Shown here piece after piece: positions 46,654 to 61,866 of a stretch of 64,000 bases of DNA. The position numbers and the translations under genes were made by a program. The stretch spans positions 4,340,001 to 4,404,000 of the forward strand of contig JAQOWU010000008.1 of NCBI GenBank assembly GCA_030867685.1. The letters run 5' to 3'. Each line of letters starts with the position of its first letter. Position 1 is the stretch's first letter. The notes beneath the pieces were generated by a model. The model worked only from the letters and a program-made list of their open reading frames with translations. It was not told the DNA's origin and did not search any database. This DNA comes from Wickerhamiella versatilis. Its lineage: Eukaryota.

Positions 46654-48211
46654 ATGAAGCTCGATATCTTTGAATTAAGACAGAGTAGCGAGTCCCAAAG
46701 AAAAGATCATGAGAAAGGCTGGATAGCTGATATACATCTGGGATGTTCAGAATCTCTGAACCGTGAGTACTCGATGCTGAGTGTCTTTTCATTTACGATA
46801 TCGATTTCGGCCCTTTTTGCAACAGTAGGAACGTCATTTGCTTATCCTTTGATAGCTGGAGGACCAGTATGTATTGTATGGTCATGGCTAATAGGTGGTG
46901 TAGGCTCCCTTCTCATCGCATTGTCAGTTTCAGAACTCGTAAGTGCCTATCCGCGTTCTGGAGGGTTGTACTATGTATGCAGCCGTGTTTTTCCTGCGGA
47001 ACCTAGTTGGCACGGATGGGCCCCGCTGATGGCATGGGTCAATGGGATACCTTAGTTTAGGTGGACAACTGGCTTGCGCAGCTTCCTCAGAGTGGGGTGG
47101 CGCTCAAATGGTTCTGAGTGCCGCTTCAATGGGGTCGGACTTTACCTATATTCCTACAGACTCCCATACTGTCGGTACGGTGAGCGCAATCATTCTATTT
47201 CATGGTTTTATTAATTGTCTACCCACAAAATATGTGGAACGTTTAGGTAGAGTCTACTTTGTGCTACACTACGCTGCGCTCGTTGCGGGCGTGATTACTC
47301 TCCTGGTATGTACGAAGGACAAGAATAATGTTGACTACGTGTTTAAAAAATTTGATTCGACCTCAGGATGGTCTCCAGATGGCTGGTCATTTATGTTTGG
47401 CTTCCTTGCTGTTAGTTGGACACTTACCAATTATGATGCACCTGCACACTTGTGTGAGGAGACCAAGAGCCCAGATACCAAGGTGCCTTGGGGTATTGCC
47501 ACTGGAAATTCAGTTACAGTACTCCTTGGTTTTGTTTACAATATAGTCTTATGCTTTTGTATGGGTCGGCCAGATTCTATCGTTGATGCTTCTCTGCCTG
47601 TAGCACAAATATACTATAACCAGCTTGGTAAAGCAGGAGGTATCACATTTACCATACTAATGTTTCTGGTAATGAACTTTGCTTGCATTAGTATAATCCA
47701 GGCTGCAAGTAGAACAATGTGGGCTCAAGGAAGGGACAATTTATTTGGAAGACGAGGTTCGCGACTAGTAGGAAGGGTCAATCACGTTACGAATACTCCA
47801 ATAAATTCTGTATTAATCTCTTCTTTCCTGTGTATCTGTATAAACTTGATTGGGCTCGGTAGCGACGAGACAATTAATGCTATATTTAATGCTACACCAA
47901 TTCTTATTGATTGGTCCGCATGCATACCAATTATTGGGAAGCTACTTAATCCCAAATTATTTAAACGTGGTCCCTGGCATCTGGGAAAAGCATCGACTGC
48001 TATAAATGTCGCTTCAGTCCTGTGGACATCTTTTGTGAGCATTGTTTTTGTTATGCCCAGCTCAATGCCAGTGAACAAAGAAAATATGAATTACTGTGTT
48101 GTTTTCATAATTGCTCTATTGTTTTCATCTCTACTAGGATGGCGATTTGGTGGTAAAAGAGCTTATAAAGGTCCTGAGGAGGAATCAGAGATCGAATACT
48201 CGGAAAAGTAG
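46654..48211 (+). pseudogene. Fungal APC amino-acid/GABA/polyamine permease (Uga4/Tpo5-like), split by a 1-nt frameshift
   Basis: ORFs 46654-47055 and 47042-48211 join into one permease (SELVSAYPRSGGLYY...WVNG|YLSLGGQ...YDAPAHLCEET) if one G is removed from AATGGGATAC (47044-47046). Could be an assembly error. Confidence 0.85.
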
Positions 48212-48304
48212 GGAAAGTTCTAACCATCAAGCTTTTTTGAAATAAGCTTCTAAATTTTAACGATAATTTGAATTTTTTAGGAATAAAAAAGAAAAAAATT
48301 TAAT

Positions 48305-49759
48305 CTAGTTCCATATAAGCAATTTCAAGGGTGTCGGTTCATAACCACTGCATGGGTTATTGAGCTGGGGGCAATTTGAGATCAGCACCACTAGGTCCAT
48401 TTTGGCTTTCATCTCTACATATTTTCCTGGGCCTGATACACCATCAGCAAAGTCAAGCACACCATCTGGGGAGACAGGGACATTCATGAAAAAGTTAATA
48501 TTATGAGCGATATCGCGTTTGGTGATCCCAAACTCTGGATGCAGAGCTGTTGCAAGCATCCAGTTGTCACGGCATGAATGCATATGTCGCCTTTCCAGAT
48601 CATATCGGACAGTGTTGCTCTCACTGGCACATGCTCCACCAAGTGTATCATGCCTACCACATGTGTCGGCTGTAATCTCTAACATTTCATTACCCAGATT
48701 TGAAAGAAGTTTGGTGCCCGTACTCAAATACAAATTTTTCTGTTCCCGAATTGTATCCATGCAGCTATAACGCTCTGAGGTATCATCTGCGCGAAAGAAA
48801 AGCGTATCCGCGGCTTCATTGCCTTCAACGTCTACAATTCTTAAGGTTTGTCCTTTCCTAACCTTTCCAATGTAATGATCGCCGGCATCAATGACGTAGT
48901 GAGTGATAGCATTTTCCTCACGTTTGATGCTCTCCAAAAGACGAGGGTTTTCAAATTTCATATTAGCGAACCTGTCCACCACATCGAAGCTGCTTTTGTC
49001 ACTAGAGTCATGTAATGATAGTGAGCTCAAATTCCGTAGTCCTAAGTGATAGAGACGATTATTCTCAAATCCTCTCTTGTTTTCAGGACAGTGTTTAAGG
49101 CACAAGTCGGAAGATAGCATGGGAGGTGCTTCACTGAGGTTGATATCAACACCTCTCTTGATATAATTTAGGCTCGAATCCATAGGATGTGGACAGGTGT
49201 GGATAATTACAAGTGTGTCCATCTCGAAACGAAGTGTAACACTACTTCCAGGCTTACAATTTCCAGGAACGTAAGCCAGCTCCCCGCGATCGTCACATTC
49301 CACTTTACTGAAAATATTCAGGTTTGCAGGCATATCTCGTCGTCCGAGGCCATATTTGGCCATCTCAATAAGAAAACTTTCGTATCCGGTTTGAGTGCGA
49401 TCGTTATGAGCTGACTGGAAGCCAACTTCTTGCCAAAATTTACGCAGCATGAGATCTCTAGTAAGATTCCCACCCACGCAATCGTGCCAACCCACATTGT
49501 CTGCGACAATTGAAGCAAAAATTCTTCCCATATCAGAATAGATACAATTTCCACGTGACAACTTGAATGTATGCTGACACTTTAACGTATCGGGTAGATT
49601 CAGACGCTCCAACTTATTTTCAGGGTTGAAGAATAACATACCAACATTCGTATCTTCATATTGGGTAGACAATGTCATTGTGGTACCTTGACGTAGTCGT
49701 AATGACCAGTGCTGGCCACCGGGTAAATGTGTAGTGTAGCTGAATTCTTTTTGTTCCAT
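48305..49759 (-). CDS. cgdAB: Fused carboxyguanidine deiminase CgdA-CgdB (two urea-carboxylase-associated DUF1989 proteins in one ORF)
   Basis: N-half LPGGQHWS...ERLNLPDTLKCQHT...YSDMGR...WHD...CPHP. C-half GQTLRIVDVEGNEAADTLF...DTCGRHDTLGGAC...NINFFMNVPV...SNCPQLNNPC. A Ser-rich linker separates them. Confidence 0.9.
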   Translation of the reverse strand: MEQKEFSYTTHLPGGQHWSLRLRQGTTMTLSTQYEDTNVGMLFFNPENKLERLNLPDTLKCQHTFKLSRGNCIYSDMGRIFASIVADNVGWHDCVGGNLTRDLMLRKFWQEVGFQSAHNDRTQTGYESFLIEMAKYGLGRRDMPANLNIFSKVECDDRGELAYVPGNCKPGSSVTLRFEMDTLVIIHTCPHPMDSSLNYIKRGVDINLSEAPPMLSSDLCLKHCPENKRGFENNRLYHLGLRNLSSLSLHDSSDKSSFDVVDRFANMKFENPRLLESIKREENAITHYVIDAGDHYIGKVRKGQTLRIVDVEGNEAADTLFFRADDTSERYSCMDTIREQKNLYLSTGTKLLSNLGNEMLEITADTCGRHDTLGGACASESNTVRYDLERRHMHSCRDNWMLATALHPEFGITKRDIAHNINFFMNVPVSPDGVLDFADGVSGPGKYVEMKAKMDLVVLISNCPQLNNPCSGYEPTPLKLLIWN

Positions 49760-50111
49760 AATGCGACTGTAAAAGTTGTGAAGACTGTTACCATAAGATA
49801 TATCAATATATACTCCGCGGACTTAGTATCAAAATCTCGCTACAAATTACCCTGCAACTCGGAGCGACGGTTACCAGGATCGGCAAACGGACGCCGCAGC
49901 TAGTTGCATAACTTTGTCATGGTAACGAGTACTGCATATGAAGAAATGGCAATTTAGAGCGAATAAGCCACTTTACTTTATTTTAAAATATGAGATAGAT
50001 ACTAGTGGAAAGTTATAGCGATGATATGTGTTTAATCACGGTGCTTAGAATCTCAATCAGATCTACAAATAACCGCTATACCCTTCAATTTAATTCAAAC
50101 AACCGCTTCAC
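49760..50111. promoter_or_regulatory. Bidirectional promoter between cgdAB and the carboxylase
   Basis: 352 bp between divergent ATGs, with a GC-rich core carrying four CGG triplets and three GTTACCA copies. Confidence 0.6.
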
Positions 50112-53100
50112 ATGTTCGATAAGGTATTGATAGCGAACCGTGGTGCAATAGTAACGCGAATTCTTCGCACCTTGAAACGATTAAAGATAAAAGCGGTTGT
50201 TGTATATGCTGAAAGCGACCGCGAAGCGCCATATGTACATGATGCGGATGAATCCTACTCTCTCGGTGATGGAACAGCTAGCCAAACATACCTTGACATG
50301 GAAAAAATTCTCATTATCGCTCGCAAAAGTGGAGTGGAGGCTATACACCCTGGATATGGGTTTCTATCGGAGAATGCCGACTTTATTAACGCCTGTGATA
50401 AATCAAAAATTGTCTTTCTTGGTCCTAAGGCACATCATGTTCAGGAATTCGGCTACAAGCATCGGGCGAGGCAATGTGCTGAACGAGCAGCTGTAGCACT
50501 AGTGCCTGGTTCTGGACTTCTTGATGATGTGGAAAAAGCTCAGAAAGTAGCTCAAGAAATAGGTTTTCCCGTGATACTCAAATCAACTGCTGGTGGGGGA
50601 GGTATTGGTATGCAGGTGTGTGAAGACTCCTCGGCTTTGAGTCGATCTTTTGAGTCTGTACAAACTCTCAGTAAGCGTAATTTTGGGAACGGAGATGTCT
50701 ATATAGAGGCTTTTATACCTAAAGCCCGTCACCTGGAAGTCCAGATATTTGGTGATGGTACAGGCAAAGTAGTAGCTCTTGGAGAGCGGGATTGTTCATC
50801 GCAGCGCCGCAATCAAAAAGTTGTTGAAGAATGTCCAGCACCCGCACTGCCCGATCGTGTAAAACAGGAAATTCATGACACAGCTAGGCGCCTCGGGGAA
50901 TCGGTTAAGTACCAAAGCGCAGGCACTGTAGAGTTTATCTATGACGTACCTCGTCAAAAGTTTTACTTTCTTGAGGTCAATACGCGACTTCAAGTAGAGC
51001 ATGGGGTCACAGAACTAGTTTGGAATGTTGATCTTGTCGAGTGGATGGTTCGTCTAGGGGCAGGTGAGCTGCCTCAGTTAGACTCTCTAAGGAGTAACCT
51101 AGCACCTTCTGGCCATGCTATTCAGGCAAGAATATATTCTGAAGATCCCCTACATAACTTTCGTCCTAGTTCAGGACTTCTCACAGAAGTGAGATTTCCC
51201 GAGTTCCATGGACTACGAATTGATCACGCACTGAAGGCAGGAATTGAAGTCTCGGCGCTTTATGACCCCATGATTGCGAAGGTGATATCTTTCAGTTCTA
51301 ATCGCAACAATGCTTGTGACCTGCTAAGGGAATCACTTGAAAATACTCAGATTTATGGAGTCATCACGAATAAGGAGTGGCTAGTAGCTCTACTTACTAG
51401 TAGAAGCTTTTTATCCGGAAATATTTATACTCAATGGTTAGAGTCATTTCAGTGGTTACCAGATGCAATCGAAATACTAGCATCAGGTACCCTCACGACT
51501 ATTCAAGATTATCCTGGCCGCCAAGGATATTGGAATGTCGGTGTTCCTCCCTCTGGGCCCTTCGATGACTGGTCCTTCCGACTTGGAAATCGCCTTCTAG
51601 AGAATCCAGAGAATGCTGCAGGATTTGAGATAACGCTAAATGGACCCAAAATACAGTTTTTCGTCGCAACCCAGATAGTAATTGCTGGCTCATCATACTC
51701 AGCGACACTCAATGGAAACCCTATCCAGCCGTGGGTAGTTATTGATGTGAATGTAAGGGATATACTCTCTATGGGCTCTGTATGCAATGGTATGAGAAGC
51801 TACCTATTGTTCCGCGGGGGTGTCAAGTGCCCTCTGTATTTAGGCTCACGTAGCACGTTCACCCTGGGACAATTTGGTGGCCATGTTGGGCGCTCACTGA
51901 AGACAGGAGACCAACTTGGCCTCAACAAGCTTCCTCCGGTTCGAACTCGTATTCTTAATCCTTCCCTATTGCCAAGATATTCTAATGGCGATGGACTCTG
52001 GGAAATATCAGTATGCTATGGACCTCATGGCGCCCCAGATTTTTTCACAGAACAGGACATCAATACTCTATTCAGTCACCAATGGAAAGTTCATTATAAT
52101 TCAAGTCGTACTGGTGTTAGACTTATGGGACCGCATCCTGAGTGGGCCCGTAGTGATGGTGGAGAAGCAGGTCTGCACCCGTCTAATATACATGACAATG
52201 CATATGCATTTGGTACAATTGACTTTACTGGAGACATGCCTATCATCCTCGGTCCTGATGGACCCTCTTTAGGAGGTTTTGTCTGTCCTGCCACAGTAAT
52301 CCACAGTGATCGCTGGAAAATAGGGCAGTTGGCACCCGATGACAGAGTTAAATTCGTTCCTGTCTCAATGAATCAAGCGCAAGCCATTGAGAGACAGTAC
52401 ACTCATGCTCTAGAAAACTTATCCCCACTATGCCTGCCTGCTATTATACCATCTAAAGGCTCACCTATTCTACGTGAAGTAGAAGCAAGTGAAGCCGGTG
52501 AATGTATAACATATCGTTGTGCTGGTGACGATTTTCTACTTATCGAGTTTGGACCCATAATTCTCGACATATCTCTTCGCTTTAGGGTGCATACCTGGAT
52601 GCTTTGGGTAGAGTCGCATAAATTACCGGGAATAAAAGAATTGACGCCAGGAATACGCTCTTTGCAGATACACTACGATCCCAGCAGATTGTCGATAGAA
52701 GCACTTTTGATTCATTTAAGGCAAGCTGAGAATGAGCTGCGCAGTATTAATGATTTAGAAGTTGAGACTCGTGAGATATTCCTCCCAATTTCTTGGGATG
52801 ATCCTGACTGCCAAAAGGCAATCGATCATTACCAGCAGAGTGTCAGACCAGGAGCACCATGGTGTCCAAGCAATTTAGAATTCATCCGTCGAATCAATGG
52901 ACTTAAAGATATCAGTCAAATAAGAGATATTATTTTTGATGCTAGCTATCTTGTCATGGGGCTGGGTGATGTATATCTTGGTGCGCCAGTGGCCACTCCA
53001 TTAAATCCAACACAACGGCTCGTAACCACAAAGTATAACCCAGCTCGTACATGGACGGCAGAGAATTCAGTTGGTATAGGTGGCGCTTACCTTTGTGTTT

Positions 53101-53711
53101 ATGGGATGGAAGGTCCTGGTGGATACCAATTTGTCGGGCGGACATTGCAAATGTGGAATCGTTACGAGAGTACCGAATATTTCAGTAACCCCTGGTTATT
53201 GAAGTTTTTCGACCAGTTGCGATTCTATGAAGTTAGTCATGACGAATTGATCAGAATACGTCGAGACTTTCCACATGGTCGTTTCAAGCTGAATGTTCGT
53301 CAGAATACTTTCCGATTAGCAGACTACGTCGAAGATATGAAGAAGATTCAAGAGGATGTCGATGAGTTTCGCGTAAAGCGCGAAAAAGCTTTTCAGGAGG
53401 AAATTGCCAGATGGCATGCGAATGGTCAATTCACGTTTGAAGAAGACCCGAAGGAGTTGTACAGTAATGATAACCCAGTTGTTGAAGATGGCGAGCTGCA
53501 GGTTGAAAGTCCAGTCTCGGGGAACATATGGAAAGTGATGGTGAATGTTGGCGATTTCGTACAGAAAGACGACACACTTGTACTTATAGAGTCGATGAAA
53601 ATGGAACTCGCGGTATGTGCCCAGTGTAATGGAGCTATTGAGAGAATTCTGATCAAGGAAGGGGTTATGACTACCAACGGTCAGCCTTTGATCGTTATGA
53701 AAGAAATATGA
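50112..53711 (+). CDS. uca: Stand-alone bacterial-type urea/guanidine carboxylase (biotin carboxylase + carboxyltransferase + BCCP; no allophanate hydrolase domain)
   Basis: MFDKVLIANRGAI, FLEVNTRLQVEHGVTE, GLHPSNIHDNAYAFGTIDFTGDMP, TKYNPARTWT and biotinylation site ESMKME. 1199 aa versus about 1830 aa for yeast Dur1,2. Confidence 0.95.
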   Translation: MFDKVLIANRGAIVTRILRTLKRLKIKAVVVYAESDREAPYVHDADESYSLGDGTASQTYLDMEKILIIARKSGVEAIHPGYGFLSENADFINACDKSKIVFLGPKAHHVQEFGYKHRARQCAERAAVALVPGSGLLDDVEKAQKVAQEIGFPVILKSTAGGGGIGMQVCEDSSALSRSFESVQTLSKRNFGNGDVYIEAFIPKARHLEVQIFGDGTGKVVALGERDCSSQRRNQKVVEECPAPALPDRVKQEIHDTARRLGESVKYQSAGTVEFIYDVPRQKFYFLEVNTRLQVEHGVTELVWNVDLVEWMVRLGAGELPQLDSLRSNLAPSGHAIQARIYSEDPLHNFRPSSGLLTEVRFPEFHGLRIDHALKAGIEVSALYDPMIAKVISFSSNRNNACDLLRESLENTQIYGVITNKEWLVALLTSRSFLSGNIYTQWLESFQWLPDAIEILASGTLTTIQDYPGRQGYWNVGVPPSGPFDDWSFRLGNRLLENPENAAGFEITLNGPKIQFFVATQIVIAGSSYSATLNGNPIQPWVVIDVNVRDILSMGSVCNGMRSYLLFRGGVKCPLYLGSRSTFTLGQFGGHVGRSLKTGDQLGLNKLPPVRTRILNPSLLPRYSNGDGLWEISVCYGPHGAPDFFTEQDINTLFSHQWKVHYNSSRTGVRLMGPHPEWARSDGGEAGLHPSNIHDNAYAFGTIDFTGDMPIILGPDGPSLGGFVCPATVIHSDRWKIGQLAPDDRVKFVPVSMNQAQAIERQYTHALENLSPLCLPAIIPSKGSPILREVEASEAGECITYRCAGDDFLLIEFGPIILDISLRFRVHTWMLWVESHKLPGIKELTPGIRSLQIHYDPSRLSIEALLIHLRQAENELRSINDLEVETREIFLPISWDDPDCQKAIDHYQQSVRPGAPWCPSNLEFIRRINGLKDISQIRDIIFDASYLVMGLGDVYLGAPVATPLNPTQRLVTTKYNPARTWTAENSVGIGGAYLCVYGMEGPGGYQFVGRTLQMWNRYESTEYFSNPWLLKFFDQLRFYEVSHDELIRIRRDFPHGRFKLNVRQNTFRLADYVEDMKKIQEDVDEFRVKREKAFQEEIARWHANGQFTFEEDPKELYSNDNPVVEDGELQVESPVSGNIWKVMVNVGDFVQKDDTLVLIESMKMELAVCAQCNGAIERILIKEGVMTTNGQPLIVMKEI

Positions 53712-53775
53712 GCCAGGTTAAACTTTCTTTAGATTATTATTGAAATTATGTTATATCGTCTGATTAGTGAGCATG

Positions 53776-54195
53776 CTAAATTATCGTCACATTATATACC
53801 GTAGACAACATTAACTTACTTACCATTTTGAGGCCCACAACACCACCTACTATCATAGATAAGAACACAAATTTAGTTAAGTCCATGGACTCAGTACCCC
53901 ACAGTACAGATACACTTACTGTCGCGACCCCGCCTACTGCAGTCCACACCGCATAAGCCGTACCAGTTGGTACAAAACTCATTGACCAACCCAAACCTCC
54001 CATACTTATAGAAAGACCAACTAGGAAAATTGATATAGGTGCAGCTTTGTGTGGCCCCTCCACATTCCCGAGAGCTGTAGCCCAAACGGCCTCGAACAGT
54101 CCGGACACCAGCAATATTAACCAAGCACTTTGGTTACTGTTCGCAGCAAAGCTTCCGGATTCTTGTTTGAGCGAAAATGAATTTGGAATCCACAT
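53776..54195 (-). CDS. gdx: SMR-family guanidinium exporter Gdx/SugE, bacterial type
   Basis: AWLILLVSGLFEAVWATAL (membrane Glu13 and Trp16 equivalents), ISM, PTGTAYAVWT, GVVGLK. Four TM helices with short N- and C-terminal extensions. Confidence 0.88.
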   Translation of the reverse strand: MWIPNSFSLKQESGSFAANSNQSAWLILLVSGLFEAVWATALGNVEGPHKAAPISIFLVGLSISMGGLGWSMSFVPTGTAYAVWTAVGGVATVSVSVLWGTESMDLTKFVFLSMIVGGVVGLKMVSKLMLSTVYNVTII

Positions 54196-55052
54196 TTCGT
54201 TTTCTTGTACTCCAGCATTTTAATCAAACTTCTTATACTTTGTATAGCCGGGGACTCGTTCTTAACTTCCCTCAATAGACATCATGACTAACACACCTGC
54301 GTGATAGCGTGCTCGGTCTCTGTTACGTTCTCTGTTACTTGTCTTTAGTAATTGGATGTCATTAGTAGTTGGATATCAGTTAAGGTTTCAGGTTTCCTAA
54401 GTTGAGCCGCGCGACATCCGTTAAGGTATTAGCCACAACGTGGAACGGTTCTAGCTAATTTATGAAAAGGAATGAAGCTAGATGGTGTCGCAAAAACAAA
54501 TCATTAATAAAATCTCTAAGCTGATTCTCATGATGTGGCTATAATGGTATTGGTTATTTTTCGACTGTATTCTGCTGTTACGAGTATCTGTATGGTCATA
54601 GAGGCATCACAGCAATCACCCCAATCCCCGCCATTTTCCAATTTTTTTCCTGTGTTAGGCTGTTTATTACATGCGATGATGTTCCATGCTTCACAAAATG
54701 TGAAAACACATATTATGATTGATAATACCTCAGATGCCTTTTTTCAGACGTATTTGGGCCTTTACTAATTTTGAATGATCTGTTAATATAAGATCAGCAA
54801 CCAGCTATAACTCATCATGCAGCACTGTACTCGCACTTTCTTGTATAAGCTTTGTTAAAAATACATTAATTCCAGTAGTCAGTAAATTTGTTTTTGTTTC
54901 TAGCGACTAGAATACCGCCGGGGTTTCGCGTTTCTGGCAGTGTCGAACTGGGGTATTATTACTATGACTAATTTGATGAGTAGCATACGTAACAAACAGG
55001 TTAAATCAAGCCGCGGCTTACGCTTCACCATTTTTTAAAGGGGCTTTGATTA

Positions 55053-56180
55053 ATGTATAAGGTACTTGTTCTCGGTGGATCATTTGCCGGTGTATGCATC
55101 TCACATGCCCTCCTGAAACAAAATTCAGACGTGCACGTAACCCTAGTAAACCCCCACGATGATTTTTACTTTTGCCTAGCAGGGCCCCGCATATTTGCAG
55201 ATCCGAGCTTTTTTAAGCCAGAACAATATTTACACTCCATAAAGGAAGCATTTAAGAAGTATGGGCGCAGGTTTGAGTTTGTGAAAGGCTTGGCTGAGGA
55301 CATCGACCTAAATGACAAAACCGTACTGCTCTCAAGTTCCCAGAGACTTTCATACGACTACCTTGTAATAGCTACTGGTAGCAAAACAACATTTGATGCT
55401 TTCAAACCATCAGGCGATTTAAAAGAAAGCATTAAAAACCTTCAGGATCAAATAGCCAAATCTAAAAGTATAGCGATTGGTGGTGGTGGACCTTTAGGTA
55501 TTGAAATTGCTGGAGAAATTGCAAACTCGTATCCATCAAAAAGCCTTGTACTCATTTGTGCTACAGATCGGTTATTGGACACACTCAAGCCTTCTGCTGG
55601 TACTAAGGCGAGAAACCTTCTTGCAAAACAGAATGTTAAGGTAATTGAAGGCACGAAGGTAAAAGAATATGTGGATGGAAAGGTCTATCTCACGAGTAAT
55701 CCTATGTCGAAGGTGGTGAAGAAGTCCAAAGTTACTGGATACGTAAGTAAAGAAGCAACTTTCGATAATTCAGGTGAGCCGCTTGATGCAGATTTGTATA
55801 TACCGGCCACAGGTGTCACGCCAAATAACAGTGCCATTCCCAAATCCTTATTGACAAGCAGCGGATATGTTAAAGTTAACAAGAACATGAAAGTCGCGGA
55901 CTATGTATATGCTGCCGGAGATGTGACAAATATTTCCGACAAGCTCGCTAGCAGAGCCATGGATGAGGCTAAGGTAGTAGCCTCCAATATAAGTTCAGAG
56001 GTTCGCGGTACAAGGCCTTCTAAGAAATTTAAAGAAGGGCCATTAATGATGCTTGTACCCATAGGCCCTTCGACAGGGACAGGCCAGATCTCCAACATAA
56101 TCATTAGTGGCTTTTTGATCAAATACATTAAGGCCAAAGATTTTCTGATATCATTCGGTAAATCCATTGCATATCAGTAG
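55053..56180 (+). CDS. AIF/AMID-like FAD-dependent pyridine nucleotide oxidoreductase
   Basis: VLVLGGSFAG, YDYLVIATG, IGGGGPLGIEIAGE, YAAGD. Confidence 0.88.
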   Translation: MYKVLVLGGSFAGVCISHALLKQNSDVHVTLVNPHDDFYFCLAGPRIFADPSFFKPEQYLHSIKEAFKKYGRRFEFVKGLAEDIDLNDKTVLLSSSQRLSYDYLVIATGSKTTFDAFKPSGDLKESIKNLQDQIAKSKSIAIGGGGPLGIEIAGEIANSYPSKSLVLICATDRLLDTLKPSAGTKARNLLAKQNVKVIEGTKVKEYVDGKVYLTSNPMSKVVKKSKVTGYVSKEATFDNSGEPLDADLYIPATGVTPNNSAIPKSLLTSSGYVKVNKNMKVADYVYAAGDVTNISDKLASRAMDEAKVVASNISSEVRGTRPSKKFKEGPLMMLVPIGPSTGTGQISNIIISGFLIKYIKAKDFLISFGKSIAYQ

Positions 56181-56561: not shown

Positions 56562-57518
56562 ATGCGAGCAGCGGCGGTAGCAGCAGCAGGCGGTCTTGGA
56601 TTGACTATATTACTCTATGTCAAACGCTCCAGGTCATGGGAAATGATTGAACCTAGTTTGAGGAACATTGTGGTTCGTTTCAAAACACCAAACGCAAGTA
56701 CTTGGATCTGGATACTTAGAGTCCTCGGACGGTTACCGCAACCTCTATATCCTAAAACAGTAGTAAGGAAACATGATATCAATGCGAATGGGCTTCAATT
56801 GTATCTTTACTTGCCGGAGAAGGCCACATCGAGAGGAGCTCTTTTCTACGTGCATGGTGGTGGTTTCATCGGTGGAAGTGCACCGCTTTATCATAACCTT
56901 TTATCAGAAATCGCAGGGAAGGCGAAGTGTGTAGTCGCGCAGGTTGAATATCGGTTGGCCCCTAAGAATCCTTATCCAGCTGGGATGGATGATAATTGGG
57001 AAGGATACAAATGGCTCCATGATCATGCAGACGAACTAGGGGTCGATAGAAATTATCTGGTGATAGGTGGAGACAGCGCGGGTGGAGGCCATGCAGCGTC
57101 ATTGGTACATAAGGTTCATGATGAGTGGCCGGCGGCTCAGCCTGTGCTGCAGTTGTTGAATTATCCGATGCTTGATGATAGAACACCCAAACAGTTTCCT
57201 CGTGGGGAGCTCATCTGGACGTGGGAATCAAATCAACACGGTTGGAAGTCGTATATAGGACAAAATCCAGGGAACTATACAGTAGCGGCGAGGAGAAATG
57301 ATCTTAGTGGACTACCTCCTGCTTGGATAGGTGTGGGTAGCCTTGACTTATTCTATGAGGAGGATCTTACCTATGCGTCGAGACTTAAAGAAGCTGGAGT
57401 TCCTTGCACACTAGATATTGTCGAGGGCGCTTATCATGCGTTCGACTTCCTACCCACCCAAATCTCACTACAGTATCGAGAGAGAATGATAGCAGCTTTA
57501 GCTAAGGCTATCAATTGA
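56562..57518 (+). CDS. HSL-family alpha/beta-hydrolase esterase
   Basis: HGGG oxyanion hole, EYRLAP, GDSAGG nucleophile, DLF and YHAFD. Confidence 0.92.
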   Translation: MRAAAVAAAGGLGLTILLYVKRSRSWEMIEPSLRNIVVRFKTPNASTWIWILRVLGRLPQPLYPKTVVRKHDINANGLQLYLYLPEKATSRGALFYVHGGGFIGGSAPLYHNLLSEIAGKAKCVVAQVEYRLAPKNPYPAGMDDNWEGYKWLHDHADELGVDRNYLVIGGDSAGGGHAASLVHKVHDEWPAAQPVLQLLNYPMLDDRTPKQFPRGELIWTWESNQHGWKSYIGQNPGNYTVAARRNDLSGLPPAWIGVGSLDLFYEEDLTYASRLKEAGVPCTLDIVEGAYHAFDFLPTQISLQYRERMIAALAKAIN

Positions 57519-58105
57519 TCCGCTTGGCCCATTATGAATGTTATCTCATTTGCTTGGCTGTCTCTATTCTGTTCTTGGGTTTGGTTTTTGGTTTATCACT
57601 ATGCTTATCGCAAATCTTCTATAAATTTGAGAATTCTTTTTTTTTGGATATGAAAATTATGACACACTTTCTAAGAATTAAAGTTACTCCACAGGGTACT
57701 CACTGTTACACTTATTTACTTAGGGGAAAGTTAAGCGAAAACGTAATGTTTCGCTGATGTAACAACCGGAACTCCGAAACACTTGAAGTTCTATGGATGA
57801 TAGGGTTATGTATACCGCGCTAAAAGGTTCTTTTAGTGCTCTGCAATATCCAATGGATGAAAGATATTTTTACTAGAGCTAACAATCTGACCGGTTGGAT
57901 CAAAAGTTTTGTCACTCCTGTTTAGAAGCGCCGCATTAGTCCCATTCGTTGTATGCAGGAATGTTAGGAATGTTTTTGTAAGCTACGGTCCCCCGAGCTT
58001 CCACCTACGTAATTAATTTGATAATCGAAGTATTATTAAGTATTTATTCTCTATAAGTATATGACGCGATATAAATCCAAGTTAGCAACTGCGGGAATTT
58101 TAGCC

Positions 58106-59002
58106 ATGTGGTCAAATCTCTCTTACCTATTACTCTTGGCTACTGCCCGCTGTAGCCCAACTTGTGCGGCACCCACATCCTCACTATCAATAGCGGAGGT
58201 CTATAATCCTGGACTTGGATCGATCTTCGATGTTTCTTCTGAAATCTTGGAAACAGACGATTATCTGGTACTTTTTGACACGCAGTTCCAGAAAAATGAT
58301 TCAGAAGTATTGGTTCAGAAGATTAAAGACCTCAACAAACCTTTGAAGACAGTTTATGTTACTTATTCAGATCCCGACTATTACTTTGGGGCTGCTGTCA
58401 TTCAAGATGCTTTCCCGGATGCGCAGATAGTTGCTACCCGTCCAGTTGTTGATGCTATAAAGGGAAATGAGGAATTGAAGCAAAAGACCTGGGATAAGCA
58501 GCTGGGTGATAATGCTCCAGACCGGATCGTAATTCCTGACCCTATTGATGTGGGAAGCTGTCATGTTGTACTTGATATTGAGGGACACAAAGTGTATTCC
58601 TACGGAGTTCTGGATAACCGTACATTCAATTGGATTCCTTCACTTGGCACAGTGCTTGGTGGTATACTTGTTGATGTGAATGCTCACGTTTGGTTAGCTG
58701 ATACGCAGACTACAGAATCGCGAGAGATATGGATTCAATCATTGGATCAAATTAAGAGCCTTAATCCAGCAAAGGTCATTCCAGGCCACTTTTACAAGAA
58801 TAGCAATGGCACCGACCCCTTTTCTATCGCATCCATTGATTTCACTGCGGAGTATATCCGTAAATTTAATGAGGAAAACTCTCGCACTGGTAACTCCACT
58901 CAGCTCATCGATGCAATGACAGCAATATATCCTGATCTCGCAGGTACCAGCAATCTCGAAACGAGCGCTCAGGTCATTAAGGGTGAAATTCCTTGGCCAT
59001 AG
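58106..59002 (+). CDS. Secreted MBL-fold metallo-hydrolase-like protein, proteobacterial type
   Basis: VYNPG..SIF.VSS, DTQFQKND, TYSDPDYYFG, HVWLADTQT, VIPGH, C-terminal KGEIPWP. Signal-like start at 58106, alternative ATG 58061. Confidence 0.82.
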   Translation: MWSNLSYLLLLATARCSPTCAAPTSSLSIAEVYNPGLGSIFDVSSEILETDDYLVLFDTQFQKNDSEVLVQKIKDLNKPLKTVYVTYSDPDYYFGAAVIQDAFPDAQIVATRPVVDAIKGNEELKQKTWDKQLGDNAPDRIVIPDPIDVGSCHVVLDIEGHKVYSYGVLDNRTFNWIPSLGTVLGGILVDVNAHVWLADTQTTESREIWIQSLDQIKSLNPAKVIPGHFYKNSNGTDPFSIASIDFTAEYIRKFNEENSRTGNSTQLIDAMTAIYPDLAGTSNLETSAQVIKGEIPWP

Positions 59003-59725
59003 AAGAGCAATTTAGCTATATTATAGAATTCGAACTACCCTAGAAATGAATGATTTATAACTTGAAATTATCGCTGATAAAAATGACTGAAAGAGATCCA
59101 GTCATCTTGGTATTACGGGTGGAGTAGCCTATACATGTCACTGCACGCACTACTGGGGAGCGCAATCTCGCTACCAGTATCAGGCTTAGAAGAATTCTAC
59201 AAGGCATCTTCAATAACCTCTTATCGGCTTATACAGATAGATCTCAAATCTTGGACCTGCATCTACTGACAGAAAAGTATCCTAATCGAACGTAACGAGA
59301 GTTTTAGGTTTGTAATTCTTAGGCACGAGAATCGAGGGTTGGGCAATCACAAGCCAAACAGGGATTGAAAGATACAGTAAAATAAAAAGAAACGACATCG
59401 CATACAATTGTGACTATATATCTTATGACGTTTTTGGTATGGAAAGATCTGTATCAACCAAATCTAGTAGTGGCGTGGTTATTGAGATGAGGCACAATTC
59501 TAGTTCAATACTCTCTGCTATACTTGCTGAGGTTGTGCCACCTTCGCTTATATTATGAGACTTCACGGTTATGAAAGATATCGGTCCGATCCTGGATAAA
59601 CATGATTGGTAATTGGTCTCCACCTATTATATTTAGATGACAAATATTTATAAGCGGAATTGGGTTAAGAGATTATTATAAAAGACAAGTTGTAAGTGTG
59701 AGTGTTTGCAGGAGTGCTCACATCA

Positions 59726-60388
59726 ATGAACGTATCTGAGGCCATTGCGACCCGTCGTTCCGTTAGGAAGTATTTACCCGATCCAGTATCCTTAAGTACC
59801 ATTCAAAAGGTGTTCGATAAAGCCCGCTGGTCGCCATCAGGATGCAACTTTCAACCCTGGGAAGGCACCGTGCTCGCAGGCCAGCCATTGAAGGATCTTC
59901 AAGCAAAGCTTGTGAGTGCACCGAGGGATGATCCTTTGGAGTATGACTGGTCAATACCGGATAAAGTTGAAAAATACCTAAAACGCAAGCAGGAGTTGGG
60001 AGCGTCAATGTATGGTGCCCTAGGTATTAAGCGTGACGATACGGAATCACGTAGGAATTTCGTTGTGGAGAACTTGAAATCCTATGGGGCTCCTGCTCTT
60101 TTGGTGATCTACTTCCCCAAGATGATGGAGGCACCCCAATGGTCCGACGTCGGGATGTGGCTGCAGTCTGTTATGTTACTCCTTCGAGAAGAGGGCCTAG
60201 ACAGCTGCCCTCAAGAGTTATTGGGATGGTACGGTCGTACTATCAAGGCCCATCTTGGCCTTCCGGACGACTACATAGTGTTCTGTGGGTTGACAATTGG
60301 CAAAAGTGATTCAGAAGCCCCCATTAATACATTTGAACGTCCGAGAGTTCCGCTGAGTGACCAAGTGAAATTTGTTGGGTTTGATTAG
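59726..60388 (+). CDS. Nitroreductase family flavoprotein, bacterial type
   Basis: MNVSEAIATRRSVR, SPSGCNFQPW, DVGMWLQSVMLLLREEGLDSCPQE. First ATG 59726. Confidence 0.92.
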   Translation: MNVSEAIATRRSVRKYLPDPVSLSTIQKVFDKARWSPSGCNFQPWEGTVLAGQPLKDLQAKLVSAPRDDPLEYDWSIPDKVEKYLKRKQELGASMYGALGIKRDDTESRRNFVVENLKSYGAPALLVIYFPKMMEAPQWSDVGMWLQSVMLLLREEGLDSCPQELLGWYGRTIKAHLGLPDDYIVFCGLTIGKSDSEAPINTFERPRVPLSDQVKFVGFD

Positions 60389-60876
60389 GGGTTTGTGGAA
60401 GCTATTGCGTCTCCAGAAACGTGGGCTTTGAAAATGTATTCGATGCGGCACGCTGTCATTGATGATGCTAGTGACCGCATGCCACATATTCAGATATCTT
60501 AGTCGATATACCAGGCAGAGGAGGTGCTATGAGCTTATGAGTATGTGGCCCTGAATACCATTGCTATTTCTAGGTCAAGCAATTTTTGAGACCGTCACGA
60601 ACCACAACACTTAATCAGCTATCATAATTCTTAGATTCCACGCTGGAATCTATCTTTGAAAGGACCAGGTAAAAAAAATACAATACTAGAGTATTTAAGA
60701 TTAATCGGACATGAGGTCCTGTGTAATTTCAAAAAAATTGAAATAAAGGATAACAACGACACATGTCACTTTTAAAGTACATTTGGAGTAATCAACCTCG
60801 ACACCAAACCTTAACCCATTCATCATCATATGGGCTCTCTACACTTCAAAAAAAATACTCATTCTATAGAAATCGA

Positions 60877-61866
60877 TTATTCGGGGTACAAGCCATGCGT
60901 TCTTGCAAATAATCTGGCCATGCCAAACAGATCATTCATGCTAGGAGTTTCAATTCGCAACAATCTGGCGAGCTCCACCACACTCGCAAGGATGGCATCA
61001 AGCTCTATAGGCCTTCCTCTTTCTGCATCTTGGAGCATGGATGTTTTAACTGCTCCCAGTCCAGCTGTGAGTTTGTTTCGTTCCTCTGGGGTCCAGGAAA
61101 TATAAAGCCCTAATTTTTCGCCAATAAATTTAGCTTCATTCATGACTTTGACACAGAAAACACTTAAGAACTCATCGTTCAGAATCCTGTCCACAGTAGC
61201 TCCTGTGATTGCAGAAAGAGGATTAAGTGTCATATTACCCCATAGTTTATACCATATCTCTTGTCGTATCTTTGACGTAACTGTAACCCTTAGGCCTGTA
61301 CCTTCGAATAATGATGCAGCTTCACTTAGGACGTGTTCATTGGCTGGAGTAGGCGTACCAAAAATCAAGTGATCACCTCCATTATGAAAGACATGTCCAG
61401 GTTTATCATCCAAAGTGTGCGCGCTGGGATGCACCACACATCCAATAACCTGGTCATTAGGTACAGCTTTTCGAATCAAACCCTCCGGATCGAGGACTGA
61501 GAGTCTCTTTCCATTCAAAGCCTGCAATCCTTCGTCGAACCACCACGGAATACCATTCATTGCCGTGATAATTTGCGTATCAGGTCCAATAAGGGGGGTA
61601 ATTTTGTTGATTATATGAATCAATGCATGCGCCTTGACAGAAATCACTACAAAATCTTGAACTCCCAAATCCTCAGGATTATCGGTTGCAGCAACTCTGA
61701 AAGTACTGATTCCAGCGTTTGTTTGAAGTTTCCAACCTTGACTTCGAATAGATGTCAAGGTTTGGTTACGAGCAATCACACTGACCTCGTTCTCTTTAGC
61801 GCTACAAAGGTTACATCCTATAAGACCACCTATTGCACCAGCTCCGAAGATACAGATTTTTGGCAT
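60877..61866 (-). CDS. panE: 2-dehydropantoate 2-reductase (PanE/ApbA family), proteobacterial type
   Basis: ICIFGAGAIGG, VKAH, AMNGIPWWF, WYKLWGNMTLNPLSA, SMLQDAE.GRPIE. Confidence 0.88.
   Translation of the reverse strand: MPKICIFGAGAIGGLIGCNLCSAKENEVSVIARNQTLTSIRSQGWKLQTNAGISTFRVAATDNPEDLGVQDFVVISVKAHALIHIINKITPLIGPDTQIITAMNGIPWWFDEGLQALNGKRLSVLDPEGLIRKAVPNDQVIGCVVHPSAHTLDDKPGHVFHNGGDHLIFGTPTPANEHVLSEAASLFEGTGLRVTVTSKIRQEIWYKLWGNMTLNPLSAITGATVDRILNDEFLSVFCVKVMNEAKFIGEKLGLYISWTPEERNKLTAGLGAVKTSMLQDAERGRPIELDAILASVVELARLLRIETPSMNDLFGMARLFARTHGLYPE

Follow-up and report, generated by a model that had tools for sequence, protein, structure and literature searches.

A Gdx-type SMR gene of bacterial origin next to guanidine degradation genes in the yeast Wickerhamiella versatilis

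A DNA stretch of 64,000 nucleotides from W. versatilis (here called the window) contains an intact SMR gene of the Gdx type, located beside the genes uca and cgdAB (Table 1). This gene is probably a functional, horizontally acquired Gdx gene that came from an actinobacterial-type source and was domesticated in an ascomycete yeast, while uca and cgdAB would derive from a separate, Halomonadaceae-like operon. The exporter and the degradation genes point to different bacteria, so this eukaryote seems to have assembled a small guanidine pathway from two bacterial sources.

Table 1. Features of the SMR-uca-cgdAB locus in window coordinates
Feature	Position	Strand	Basis or remark
APC-family amino acid/cation permease, two overlapping ORFs	46654..48211	+	Apparent +1 frameshift near 47049
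cgdA-cgdB fused carboxyguanidine deiminase, two DUF1989 domains, 484 aa	48305..49759	-	TIGR03425 and TIGR03424 above cutoffs
cgdAB/uca divergent intergenic region, 352 bp	49760..50111	.	ORF listing
uca, stand-alone urea/guanidine carboxylase, 1199 aa	50112..53711	+	TIGR02712, 1701 bits (cutoff, 1304)
Tail-to-tail spacer, uca stop to SMR stop, 64 bp	53712..53775	.	Convergent genes
SMR (Gdx-type) CDS	53776..54195	-	139 codons plus TAG; ORF listing, Pfam, Gdx-Clo match, four-helix model
C-terminal extension, codons 127-139 plus stop	53776..53817	-	Specific to this genome; begins at GTAAGT word
Conserved four-helix SMR core, codons 23-126	53818..54129	-	E35, W38, S64, Y81, W84 present
N-terminal tail, codons 1-22, eukaryote specific (MWIPNSFSLKQES...)	54130..54195	-	Alignment A1; absent from bacterial relatives
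SMR upstream region, presumed promoter and 5' UTR	54196..55052	.	No riboswitch; no motif in common with cgdAB-uca promoter

Family, subtype, and the link to guanidine

The SMR ORF runs on the minus strand from an ATG at 54195-54193 to a TAG at 53778-53776. Residues 24 to 115 of its product match positions 2 to 93 of the 93-position Pfam profile PF00893 (Multi_Drug_Res) with an E value of 1.7e-18 and 67.3 bits, above the curated gathering cutoff of 23.7. The closest relative of solved structure was Gdx-Clo (6wk5_B; E value, 2.2e-17; 66.7 bits), to which residues 24 to 126 align without gaps over 103 residues (chain residues 2 to 104; 36% to 38% identity), whereas EmrE scored only 27 bits. In the AlphaFold2 model (mean pLDDT, 83.4), helices are predicted at residues 14 to 43, 51 to 71, 77 to 99, and 106 to 138, consistent with the core of ~100 to 110 aa and the four transmembrane helices of the SMR family. 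The top fold match of this model was Gdx-Clo 8vxu_B (TM score of 0.89 on the target; rmsd, 1.6 Å; 102 columns), and EmrE was also among the matches. The membrane-embedded glutamate of SMR helix 1 (E13 in Gdx and E14 in EmrE) corresponds to E35, which is invariant in alignment A1 and whose GAG codon (54091-54093, minus strand) was read directly. The sequence-only reading had proposed an intact four-helix SMR with the essential glutamate, and both the ORF and the model bear this out.

Several features assign the protein to the Gdx subtype. With an offset of 22 residues relative to Gdx-Clo, residues E13, W16, S42, Y59, and W62 correspond to E35, W38, S64, Y81, and W84, all of which are present in the yeast protein and invariant across A1. 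They make up the Gdx hydrogen-bond stack, S42 and W62 included, and the roles of the stack residues are taken here as given in the available parts of PMC9574504 and PMC10443351, according to which W16 is replaced by glycine or alanine in drug-exporting SMRs. The protein was nearer to the characterized Gdx than to Qac/EmrE proteins, and its top NCBIfam model was SugE (69.6 bits), with Qac models at 46 bits or less, but that score was below the curated cutoff of 126 for the E. coli-type SugE equivalog NF008512. A genetic tie to guanidine sensing is seen in the bacterial relatives: in 14 of the 19 actinobacterial loci examined, or in 13 of 18 when these are counted as distinct bacterial places, a Guanidine-III riboswitch that reaches at least the Rfam gathering score immediately precedes the SMR gene. 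No riboswitch was found at the yeast locus (Rfam scan of 47500-55600; E values up to 1; 0 matches), and the tie to guanidine metabolism there is provided by the neighbors, uca at a distance of 64 bp and cgdAB at 4 kb. The yeast SMR would be a guanidinium/H+ antiporter working as an antiparallel dimer, and guanidine, not urea, would be the substrate of the uca route.

Alternatively, the SMR could be functional outside any guanidine module, its adjacency to uca reflecting a landing zone for foreign or accessory genes and its substrate being another small cation. Guanidine derivatives, quaternary ammonium compounds, and polyamines are the other cations that come into question for such an exporter. 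The window does contain many genes of accessory type (MFS transporters, Zn2Cys6 regulators, and oxidoreductases), and several downstream neighbors score strongly against bacterial family models, among them a 2-dehydropantoate 2-reductase (NF005089; 373 bits against a cutoff of 223). Gdx proteins also carry some substituted guanidines, according to the available part of PMC10461911. In addition, the SMR and uca/cgdAB have no common promoter motif: the regions 49760-50111 and 54196-55052 share 12, 3, 1, 0, and 0 words for k = 8 to 12, which is the level of shuffled sequences (means of 13.5, 3.4, 0.9, 0.2, and 0.03), and GATAA is not enriched, with a single occurrence in the three intergenic regions but 2.6 per kb in the window as a whole. 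However, all five stack residues, W16 included, are retained, the riboswitch controls most of the distinct relatives, and by our estimate two foreign genes related to guanidine are unlikely to end up adjacent by chance among several thousand genes. We therefore regard an SMR unrelated to guanidine as an unlikely explanation.

Bacterial sources of the SMR gene and its neighbors

The SMR relatives nearest by sequence are from Actinomycetota (55% to 63% identity), and among the 120 best matches all 21 that carry an organism name belong to this phylum. Identity to the yeast protein decreases from 63% (P0004) and 62% (P0007) through a 60% cluster, which includes a Corynebacterium protein and makes Corynebacterium-like bacteria the closest named group, to 45% to 53% for most other Actinomycetota. 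In genome sets that are samples and not whole groups, the best SMR match was 57% identical (117 bits) in 301 Actinomycetota, 41% identical (76 bits) in 301 Pseudomonadales, and 40% to 41% identical (69 bits) in 201 Halomonadaceae; no SMR above 41% was thus found in the last two samples. The ESM Atlas language-model neighbors of the yeast SMR fall in clusters with Pseudomonadota as the commonest phylum, a likeness that is not a phylogenetic measure. The motifs SGLFEAVWATALG and PTGTAYAVW are common to the yeast SMR and actinobacterial Gdx proteins.

The neighbors point elsewhere. The best named relatives of uca are Halomonadaceae proteins (62% to 65% identity), and uca was found in 97 of the 301 Pseudomonadales genomes (best identity, 63%) versus 7 of the 301 Actinomycetota genomes (best identity, 51%), a pattern reciprocal to that of the SMR. 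The yeast clade of the uca tree (support, 100) has Carnimonas as its sister (99) within a clade of Halomonadaceae, Salinisphaera, and Endozoicomonas (97), whereas the Actinomycetota rows, 46% to 51% identical to yeast uca, form a separate clade (100). The two halves of cgdAB are 65% to 67% and 71% to 73% identical to adjoining genes in the Halomonadaceae genomes G181 and G102, where cgdA and cgdB also adjoin uca; in G181 all three are on one strand in the same direction, and they form one operon in Halomonadaceae. In the yeast, the two halves are joined by a linker of ~25 aa. A candidate bacterial cgdAB fusion in genome G078 was rejected, because several stops interrupt the linker when the alignment is read through, and the two genes are hence not fused.

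The SMR tree was calculated from 103 columns. In the 195-row tree, the yeast rows are within a 148-row clade (SH-aLRT, 96) that contains none of the 33 Pseudomonadota rows and in which 97 rows are labeled Actinomycetota, 44 are unnamed matches, and 4 have another or no phylum label. In a 67-row subset, on which the AU tests were also run, the yeast clade (100/91) joins P0012 (96/80), a Corynebacterium group (99/92), Aestuariimicrobium (99/86), and Gordonia (98/88). Placing the yeast rows with a Pseudomonas-type clade, chosen after the tree had been viewed, was rejected in a three-tree AU test (delta lnL, 55; p-AU, 0.004; p-SH, 0.033), with a p value of 0.083 when this constraint was compared with the free tree alone. 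Forcing a 23-row Pseudomonadota-rich outgroup and the yeast to one side gave a tree 16.9 lnL better than the free search (p-AU, 0.72), in which the outgroup joins the yeast stem and the neighbors of the yeast rows are unchanged. Without the yeast rows, the outgroup attaches on the Nonomuraea/Rothia side, and a position beside the Corynebacterium-type clade is worse by only 5 lnL (p, 0.38). By the AU tests, more than one root position of the clade is acceptable, and the yeast branch may therefore be basal to the actinobacterial-type clade instead of nested inside it.

This bears on the possibility of a direct donor outside Actinomycetota, the yeast branch standing beside the actinobacterial-type clade or coming from another phylum with this Gdx type. 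Polyangiaceae, Trueperaceae, and Saccharimonadales rows are found inside the clade in the 67-row tree; this Gdx type thus passes from one phylum to another, and the immediate source could have been a bacterium of another group. No organism label is attached to P0004, P0007, and P0012, the bacterial proteins closest to the yeast SMR. However, a branch sister to the whole clade does not predict the identity gradient described above, and Actinomycetota account for most of the labeled rows of the clade. We find a donor from another phylum rather improbable.

A single transfer is a further step down in probability. One bacterial donor, for example by way of a plasmid or island, would have carried an actinobacterial-type Gdx gene together with the cgdA-cgdB-uca operon. 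The SMR and uca are tail to tail, exporters and catabolic genes are often joined in bacterial guanidine operons (PMC9574504, available part), and Gdx of the actinobacterial type is found in a few other phyla, so that a gammaproteobacterium could have carried one. Against this, the Pseudomonadales and Halomonadaceae samples, the latter being the family of G181, lack a close SMR; among the five genomes with the closest uca, only two have any SMR match, at best 30% identical and megabases away from uca; uca of Actinomycetota falls in its separate clade; and the yeast SMR is convergent with uca, unlike the same-direction genes of an operon. The comparisons thus support different bacterial groups as the sources of the SMR and of uca/cgdAB. 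In the sequence-only reading, the wording of the SMR had looked actinobacterial and cgdAB/uca proteobacterial, and both impressions agree with the searches. For the trees with topology tests that it had called for, a Pseudomonas-type placement of the SMR fails and uca groups with Halomonadaceae, while the SMR branch may be either nested or basal. Assembly of the cluster in the yeast lineage by separate transfers, as it had suggested, is the most economical reading rather than a proven one.

Constraint and host setting

The start methionine of the bacterial proteins aligns with yeast SMR residue 23, confirming the added N-terminal tail of ~22 aa noted from the sequence. The same tail is present in the two closest homologues, P0002 (89% overall identity; 20 of 23 tail positions identical) and P0003 (60%; 9 of 23), and, among the matches listed, only in these two sister orthologues. 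Its residues 1 to 20 have pLDDT values of 56 to 59 in the model. The C terminus of the sister orthologue (...GLKIVSEN) differs from that of the window's SMR (P0001). No splice joint was seen at the GTAAGT word near the SMR 3' end, where the read depth of 0 to 2.5x is too low to decide. The sister protein ends near this site without needing an intron.

The three orthologues are intact and diverge by up to 40% at the protein level. Thirty-two columns are conserved in 90% or more of 29 bacterial rows, and P0001 retains 30 of them. Between P0001 and P0003, 36 of 103 core columns differ, but only 2 of the 32 bacterially conserved ones (hypergeometric P, 1.5e-5), and 2 of 32 also differ between P0002 and P0003 (P, 7e-5). 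Changes thus avoid the conserved columns, and the SMR sequence is under constraint within the yeast lineage.

Expression is hinted at by the RNA reads, which come from a strain 1% to 5% divergent from the window. In three RNA runs, the depth was ~0 to 3x over the SMR and 0 to 2.7x over the tail of uca, compared with ~20 to 80x over a neighboring gene. In run X1, which covers part of the SMR gene and is only guessed to be RNA, a contig over uca stops at 53783, 8 nt inside the SMR 3' end, and another extends to 54235, in the SMR upstream region. Such low depth, the C terminus that varies between sister species, and the frameshift in the adjoining permease (ORFs 46654-47055 and 47042-48211; AA_permease_2; E value, 1.6e-41) would suit a decaying relic or an unexpressed gene. 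However, the three ORFs are intact with their changes kept out of conserved columns, the Lys+Arg bias described below is the same in all three although the charged positions have shifted, and catabolic nitrogen genes would be expected to be quiet in standard media; a relic is very improbable.

A fungal setting is supported by other genes of the contig, which include two Zn(2)Cys6 regulators, a GH76 enzyme, and transporters of the MFS/TRI12 type. The GC3 of the SMR is 0.41, against 0.36 to 0.57 for neighboring genes, and since the GC3 of the transferred genes (0.37 to 0.41) resembles that of host genes, both transfers are old. With bacterial nearest relatives, a host-embedded position, and, among the matches listed, no vertical fungal relatives beyond the two sister orthologues, the gene has the marks of a bacterium-to-fungus transfer. 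Bacterial contamination or an assembly chimera, for which nothing was found in favor, is practically negligible given fungal genes on both sides in one 64-kb window, a host-like GC3 where actinobacterial genes are GC-rich, the gene and its N-tail in two other assemblies, and run X2, in which 100% of the sampled words of 48000-54600 are present but which may be source data and is therefore not independent support.

Topology, proposed mechanism, and known systems

The Lys+Arg bias is +1 (3 versus 2) in P0001, P0002, and P0003, held although the charged positions themselves changed, and -1 in eight of the nine nearest bacterial proteins. A bias near zero, within +/-2, in a single gene is the criterion for dual topology in the available part of PMC9574504. 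The yeast SMR has such a bias, and no second SMR ORF appears in the ORF lists of the window (lower limits of 80 and 150 aa), so by sequence it would qualify as a dual-topology protein. A complex prediction with two copies of residues 20 to 128 and alignment A1 gave a score of 0.02, which speaks neither for nor against dimerization.

In the scheme that we favor, the SMR gene would have come from an actinobacterial-type source whose nearest sampled relatives are Corynebacterium-, Aestuariimicrobium-, and Gordonia-like Gdx genes, and uca and cgdAB would have arrived as one unit, from the cgdA-cgdB-uca operon of a Halomonadaceae-like gammaproteobacterium. In the yeast, the operon would have been inverted into a divergent pair with cgdA and cgdB fused, and the SMR gene would have acquired its 22-codon tail and a host-like base composition. 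Two identical four-helix subunits could insert in opposite orientations, because their Lys+Arg bias is near zero, and form an antiparallel dimer in which the paired Glu35 residues would exchange two H+ for one guanidinium. Powered by the proton gradient across the plasma membrane or the vacuolar membrane, the dimer would clear guanidinium from the cytosol, and it would serve as a safety valve while the carboxylase/deiminase route draws nitrogen from guanidine.

A stronger version, in which the yeast lineage built its guanidine module with genes of two bacterial phyla and keeps the exporter under selection as a true dual-topology protein, is put forward tentatively and is possible rather than probable. 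Identical chains would enter the endoplasmic reticulum (ER) membrane both ways, possibly by different insertion routes, and pair antiparallel. To our knowledge, dual-topology membrane proteins are nearly absent from eukaryotes. With a Gdx under purifying selection and a +1 bias in three species, the question of dual topology at the ER would become testable by ordinary yeast genetics. If true, a genetically tractable ascomycete would for the first time provide a dual-topology transporter maintained by natural selection.

The sequence-only view that SMRs are essentially prokaryotic needs revision. Gdx-like SMRs of bacterial origin, with glutamate and tryptophan in helix 1 and a weak charge bias, were described in Neocallimastigomycetes in 2023 (Seppala et al. 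2023, PMC10443351), where they are 79% to 80% identical to proteins of rumen Firmicutes and Spirochaetes. According to the available part of that paper, a MycoCosm search in 2023 found the SMR family in no fungi besides Neocallimastigomycetes, and whether the ER can make dual-topology proteins was raised there for the anaerobic-fungal SMRs; the same question applies to the yeast protein. Since SMRs have been known in anaerobic fungi from 2023 on, the yeast SMR adds to those already known from fungi. The earlier ones belong to another fungal phylum and, in the available part of PMC10443351, have no tie to guanidine catabolic genes. The yeast SMR is, judged from its sequence, an independent acquisition of actinobacterial type.

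Compared with Gdx-Clo (PDB 6WK5, 6WK8, and 8VXU), the yeast SMR has the same four-helix fold and the same five key residues, but it is a predicted transporter that adds a 22-aa N-tail and a 13-aa C-tail and would insert at the ER. Its closest relatives, the actinobacterial Gdx proteins under Guanidine-III (ykkC-III) riboswitches (45% to 63% identity), are single 104-aa proteins with a near-zero Lys+Arg bias, whereas the yeast gene lacks a riboswitch, is spaced in the manner of eukaryotic genes, and encodes a protein with extra tails and a bias of +1 rather than -1. The yeast uca and cgdAB match the models of the bacterial guanidine carboxylase pathway (TIGR02712, TIGR03425, and TIGR03424; Schneider et al. 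2020, as given in the available parts of PMC12623156 and PMC9574504), but the yeast differs in having a fused cgdA-cgdB gene that diverges from uca. In 2011, the Saccharomycotina species then examined were reported to lack a stand-alone urea/guanidine carboxylase (PMC3073912, available part).

The locus is a clean example of a eukaryote that has brought genes of two bacterial phyla next to each other to deal with a single small molecule, and it suggests that free guanidine matters in the niche of this yeast. No report of the yeast guanidine cluster or the yeast SMR was found in the literature searched, many subscription papers being outside reach. Large yeast HGT catalogues may already include these genes. 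They may also be among the six prokaryote-derived genes of a yeast genome paper (PMC4022394, Additional file 8, as far as the available part of that paper goes). The locus also shows an operon remodeled into eukaryotic gene units by inversion, fusion, and added tails. The siderophore operon transferred into budding yeasts (bioRxiv 10.1101/399394, available part) is likewise a bacterial multigene unit kept as neighbors, whereas the guanidine genes trace to two phyla and the operon has become a divergent pair with a convergent gene beside it.

A Gdx-type SMR gene in a yeast genome

The SMR gene consists of 139 uninterrupted codons, from an ATG at 54195 to a TAG at 53776 on the window minus strand, and its product (P0001) matched PF00893 over nearly the full profile (E = 1.7e-18; 67.3 bits; cutoff, 23.7). 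The top match among solved structures was Gdx-Clo (6wk5_B; E = 2.2e-17), whose residues 2 to 104 pair without gaps with yeast residues 24 to 126; EmrE scored just 27 bits in that search. Yeast residues E35, W38, S64, Y81, and W84 correspond, at an offset of 22, to Gdx-Clo E13, W16, S42, Y59, and W62. In the available part of a review (PMC9574504), E13 is described as binding substrate and protons, W16, S42, and W62 as a hydrogen-bond stack holding E13, and Y59 as contacting E13 across subunits. A helix-1 Trp marks guanidinium exporters, and Gly or Ala is found there in drug exporters, according to the accessible text of PMC10443351. The AlphaFold2 model (32-row alignment; mean pLDDT, 83.4) has four helices, and its top fold match was also Gdx-Clo (TM, 0.89 on target; rmsd, 1.6 Å). 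The highest NCBIfam match was the SugE equivalog, yet the score was under the cutoff (69.6 versus 126 bits). The profile match, the ungapped alignment, E35, and the four model helices confirm the SMR-family identity put forward in the sequence-only reading.

The yeast protein starts 22 residues ahead of the position of the bacterial start Met, and the same N-terminal tail is present in its two closest homologues, P0002 (89% identity, 128 amino acids [aa]) and P0003 (60%, 127 aa), which we take to be sister-species orthologues. P0002 and a cgdAB homologue, P0121 (97% identical), both have a longest contig of 19,793; the equal value hints that the SMR gene and cgdAB are linked in the sister species as well. 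The C termini differ: the protein in the window ends in ...GLKMVSKLMLSTVYNVTII and the sister orthologue in ...GLKIVSEN. The divergence begins at a GTAAGT word resembling a 5' splice site, and CACTAATCAG lies past the stop codon. Spliced reads were absent from this 3' end, where depth was near zero.

Two Zn(2)Cys6 regulators, a GH76 enzyme, and MFS/TRI12-type transporters lie in the same 64-kb window; as a lead only, Eukaryota make up 91 to 98% of the Atlas clusters nearest to the GH76 protein, with Ascomycota the commonest phylum. GC3 is 0.41 for both the SMR gene and cgdAB and 0.37 for uca, all inside the range of the neighboring genes (0.36 to 0.57). The SMR gene is a fungal gene and not a contaminant. 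In the SMR alignment, 32 of the 103 core columns were at least 90% conserved when the 29 bacterial rows alone were considered, and each yeast protein retains 30 of these 32. P0001 and P0003 differ at 36 core positions, just 2 of them in conserved columns (hypergeometric P = 1.5e-5), and P0002 and P0003 differ at 33, again with 2 in conserved columns (P = 7e-5). It is thus almost certain that this is a real, constrained Gdx-type gene located in a fungal genome.

All three yeast proteins have Lys plus Arg counts of 3 versus 2 in tails and loops (bias, +1), although the individual charges differ; the protein in the window has no loop-2 Arg and carries a second Lys in its longer C-terminal tail. 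In eight of the nine bacterial proteins nearest to them, the counts are 2 versus 3 (bias, −1), and the ninth has a long, probably miscalled N-terminal extension. Single SMR genes center on a bias of 0, with just 3% beyond ±2 (PMC9574504, available part), and the values for the yeast proteins therefore fall inside the dual-topology range. On balance, it is somewhat more likely than not that the protein would export guanidinium as an antiparallel dimer, tied to the neighboring pathway.

Features of the cluster and its surroundings (window positions), with RNA depth summed over three runs and depth of run X1 contigs
Feature	Position	Strand	Summed RNA depth	X1 depth
APC-family permease	46654-48211	+		
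Permease, first ORF	46654-47055	+		
Permease, second ORF	47042-48211	+		
cgdAB (fused carboxyguanidine deiminase)	48305-49759	-		
cgdAB and uca head-to-head pair	48305-53711			
uca (urea/guanidine carboxylase)	50112-53711	+	0-2.7x (tail)	
X1 contig over uca	reaches 53783			13.6
X1 uca contig beyond uca	53712-53783			
SMR gene	53776-54195	-	about 0-3x	
SMR 3' end, divergent C terminus	53776-53830	-		
X1 segment over SMR gene	54008-54235			4.3
Intergenic bins	54319-54520		0-0.5x	
X1 contig over next gene	from 55010			6.8
1-base difference	55031			
Next gene	from 55053		roughly 20-80x	
Pyridine-nucleotide oxidoreductase ORF	55053-56180			
5-base difference	55249			
Loose read ends	55254			
Genes scoring on bacterial models	56562-63707			

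Bacterial relatives of SMR, uca, and cgdAB

A word-indexed search of 5.8 billion proteins with the SMR protein gave 706 matches at E ≤ 0.001. Among the best 120 of these, which were examined, the two yeast proteins came first, followed by 104-aa bacterial proteins (49 to 63% identity), and all 21 matches with a named organism were from Actinomycetota (Rothia, Gordonia, Aestuariimicrobium, Prauserella, Microbacterium, Aeromicrobium, Arcanobacterium, Arthrobacter, Microlunatus, and Actinomycetospora). A Corynebacterium protein belongs to the cluster of P0005, a homologue 60% identical to the yeast SMR. An exhaustive search of 50%-identity representatives gave 1463 matches at E ≤ 0.001, with only the cluster of P0002 below 1e-30. 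The top match was 57% identical (117 bits) across 301 Actinomycetota genomes, 41% (76 bits) across 301 genomes of the GTDB order around Pseudomonas sediminis, and 40 to 41% (69 bits) across 201 genomes of the family of G181, a genome with one of the closest uca genes. No close SMR was found in the five donor-like genomes with the closest uca; two of the five had a match, 26 to 30% identical and far from uca.

At 14 of 19 actinobacterial loci, a Guanidine-III riboswitch scoring at least the Rfam gathering threshold precedes the SMR gene in the same orientation and ends 10 to 100 nt before it; since two of the loci (L002 and L141) are one place in one genome, this corresponds to 13 of 18 distinct places. 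The Rfam scan found no such riboswitch at loci L140, L146, L147, L148, and L047 and no match of any kind at the yeast locus. At L145, a tandem SMR pair follows one riboswitch. Tandem pairs occur in some Actinomycetota (that of L145 in genome G457, L150/L164 in G374, and L154 in G314); they are presumably heterodimeric and of the same clade as the single-gene forms.

The uca product (1199 aa; TIGR02712, 1701 bits) is most similar to one yeast protein (71% identity), and then to full-length bacterial proteins of 62 to 65% identity, the named ones all from Halomonadaceae, with Salinisphaera, Endozoicomonas, and other marine Gammaproteobacteria at 56 to 62%. Of 301 Pseudomonadales genomes, 97 had uca (best identity, 63%), compared with 7 of the 301 from Actinomycetota (best identity, 51%). 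In a quick LG+G4 tree (42 rows, 1204 columns), Carnimonas is the sister of the two yeast rows (support, 100 for the yeast pair and 99 for the sister grouping); these lie inside a clade (97) with Halomonadaceae, Salinisphaera, and Endozoicomonas, and a separate clade (100) contains the four rows from Actinomycetota. A urea carboxylase 57% identical to yeast uca (P0472), on a 6.4-kb contig labeled as the cyanobacterium Kaarinaea lacus, clusters with gammaproteobacterial proteins; this contig is possibly a contaminant, and its row bears an erroneous gammaproteobacterial label in the uca tree.

The two genomes whose uca is closest to the yeast gene, G181 and G102, carry cgdA and cgdB directly ahead of uca in the same orientation, and the two products are 65 to 67% and 71 to 73% identical to the yeast cgdAB halves. 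The identity rank order of cgdAB tracks that of uca across seven genomes. This adjacency and the matching rankings indicate that uca and cgdAB arrived jointly from a Halomonadaceae-like operon. Independent cgdAB fusions from metagenomes and two eukaryote proteomes are more distant (45 to 61%). In G181, cgdA and cgdB share a reading frame with a single TAA between them; in the yeast, the junction is a linker of ~25 aa (RNLSSLSLHDSSDKSSFDVVDRFANMKFENPR) in one 484-aa protein. The bacterial order is cgdA-cgdB-uca on one strand, whereas yeast cgdAB and uca are divergent with 352 bp between them; the operon has been converted to a head-to-head eukaryotic gene pair with a shared upstream region. The SMR gene is convergent to uca, with a stop-to-stop distance of 64 bp.

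Placement of the yeast SMR and probable separate donors

In a quick tree of 195 rows, the three yeast rows (SH-aLRT, 92) fall within a 148-row clade (SH-aLRT, 96) of 97 Actinomycetota-labeled rows, 44 hits without a name, one unknown row, and a single row from each of Myxococcota, Saccharimonadota, and Deinococcota; the 33 Pseudomonadota rows all fall outside it. This tree comprised all assembled rows except L055 and L132 (HSPs of <90 residues) and P0061 to P0120, of which six named proteins were kept, and a P0514 cluster member was added. The Gdx genes of L001, L011, and L019 (Polyangiaceae, Trueperaceae, and Saccharimonadales MAG contigs) nest in the otherwise actinobacterial clade; either this Gdx type has spread across bacterial phyla or these are mixed bins.

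For a careful tree we chose 67 rows: the nearest hits, a selection of named Actinomycetota rows, every named locus from outside the Actinomycetota, and 10 of the 24 rows from the Pseudomonadales sample. Support was 100/91 for the yeast rows alone, 96/80 with the homologue P0012, and 99/92, 99/86, and 98/88 on adding the Corynebacterium group, Aestuariimicrobium, and Gordonia, respectively. The Pseudomonadota-rich rows form a clade apart (100/97).

That SMR shared a donor with uca was addressed by constrained trees. Grouping the yeast rows with the 23-row Pseudomonadota-rich clade (test A) gave a tree that beats the free search by 16.9 lnL (p-AU, 0.72); in it, the yeast neighbors are unchanged (P0012, P0007, and the Corynebacterium group), and the long outgroup stem joins the long yeast stem. 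With the yeast rows removed, the outgroup joins on the side of Nonomuraea and Rothia, and nodes of 100/97 and 99/94 separate it from the more deeply nested Corynebacterium-type clade; shifting the outgroup beside this clade (test C) cost just 5 lnL (P = 0.38). Several root positions of the actinobacterial-type clade thus fit the 103 columns, and it is likely that the yeast SMR is nested within Actinomycetota. A more direct probe, grouping the yeast rows with the eight-row Pseudomonas-type clade (test B), gave a tree that trails the free tree by 38 lnL (P = 0.083) and the best tree of a three-tree AU test by 55 lnL (p-AU, 0.004; p-SH, 0.033), P values that are weakened because this clade was picked after the tree was seen. 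On the whole, the proposed mosaic is supported, and the actinobacterial look ascribed to SMR and the proteobacterial look of uca/cgdAB agree with their respective relatives. The source of SMR very probably differs from that of uca/cgdAB, and its direct donor was probably an actinobacterium.

Eukaryotic SMRs were first reported in 2023, from three Neocallimastigomycetes; the earlier statement that SMRs are essentially prokaryotic is qualified by that report. In the accessible text of that report (PMC10443351), these proteins are Gdx-like with a weak charge bias, are 79 to 80% identical to rumen Firmicutes and Spirochaetes proteins, and can be expressed in S. cerevisiae membranes, and a MycoCosm search placed the family in no further fungi. 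A 2011 survey (PMC3073912, available part) described the Saccharomycotina species it examined as having no stand-alone urea carboxylase. Our literature search, with supplementary HGT lists outside its scope, found no report of a yeast SMR or a yeast guanidine cluster. The yeast gene is therefore regarded as an independent acquisition of actinobacterial type, and it adjoins guanidine catabolic genes that were very probably acquired separately.

Expression and flanking genes

Expression was assessed from three RNA runs under the same species label; most reads were 95 to 99% identical to the window and hence came from another strain. No splice joints were seen at the depths listed. The depths fit, loosely, low basal transcription of all cluster genes under conditions that were probably nitrogen rich. 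In run X1, the kind of which was only guessed as RNA, the uca contig runs 8 nt into the convergent SMR ORF from its 3' end and stops there; should X1 be RNA, the 3' ends of the uca and SMR transcripts would overlap.

In runs X6, X9, and X10, essentially all RNA reads lack one base and five bases at the two positions listed, the latter within the oxidoreductase ORF; the X1 contig is without these differences, which may represent strain divergence or a local assembly difference. The permease adjoining cgdAB is split into two overlapping ORFs, and its reading ...AWVNG|YLSLGGQLA... goes on in the +1 frame near 47049; the split reflects either a pseudogene with a frameshift or an error in the assembly, and the permease, if intact, could serve as an uptake partner of the cluster. 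Downstream of the oxidoreductase, several genes scored strongly on bacterial family models, including a 2-dehydropantoate 2-reductase (NF005089; 373 bits; cutoff, 223), a Vmh-family MBL hydrolase (264 bits), and an SDR (295 bits), and genes of bacterial origin or accessory type may be concentrated in this stretch.
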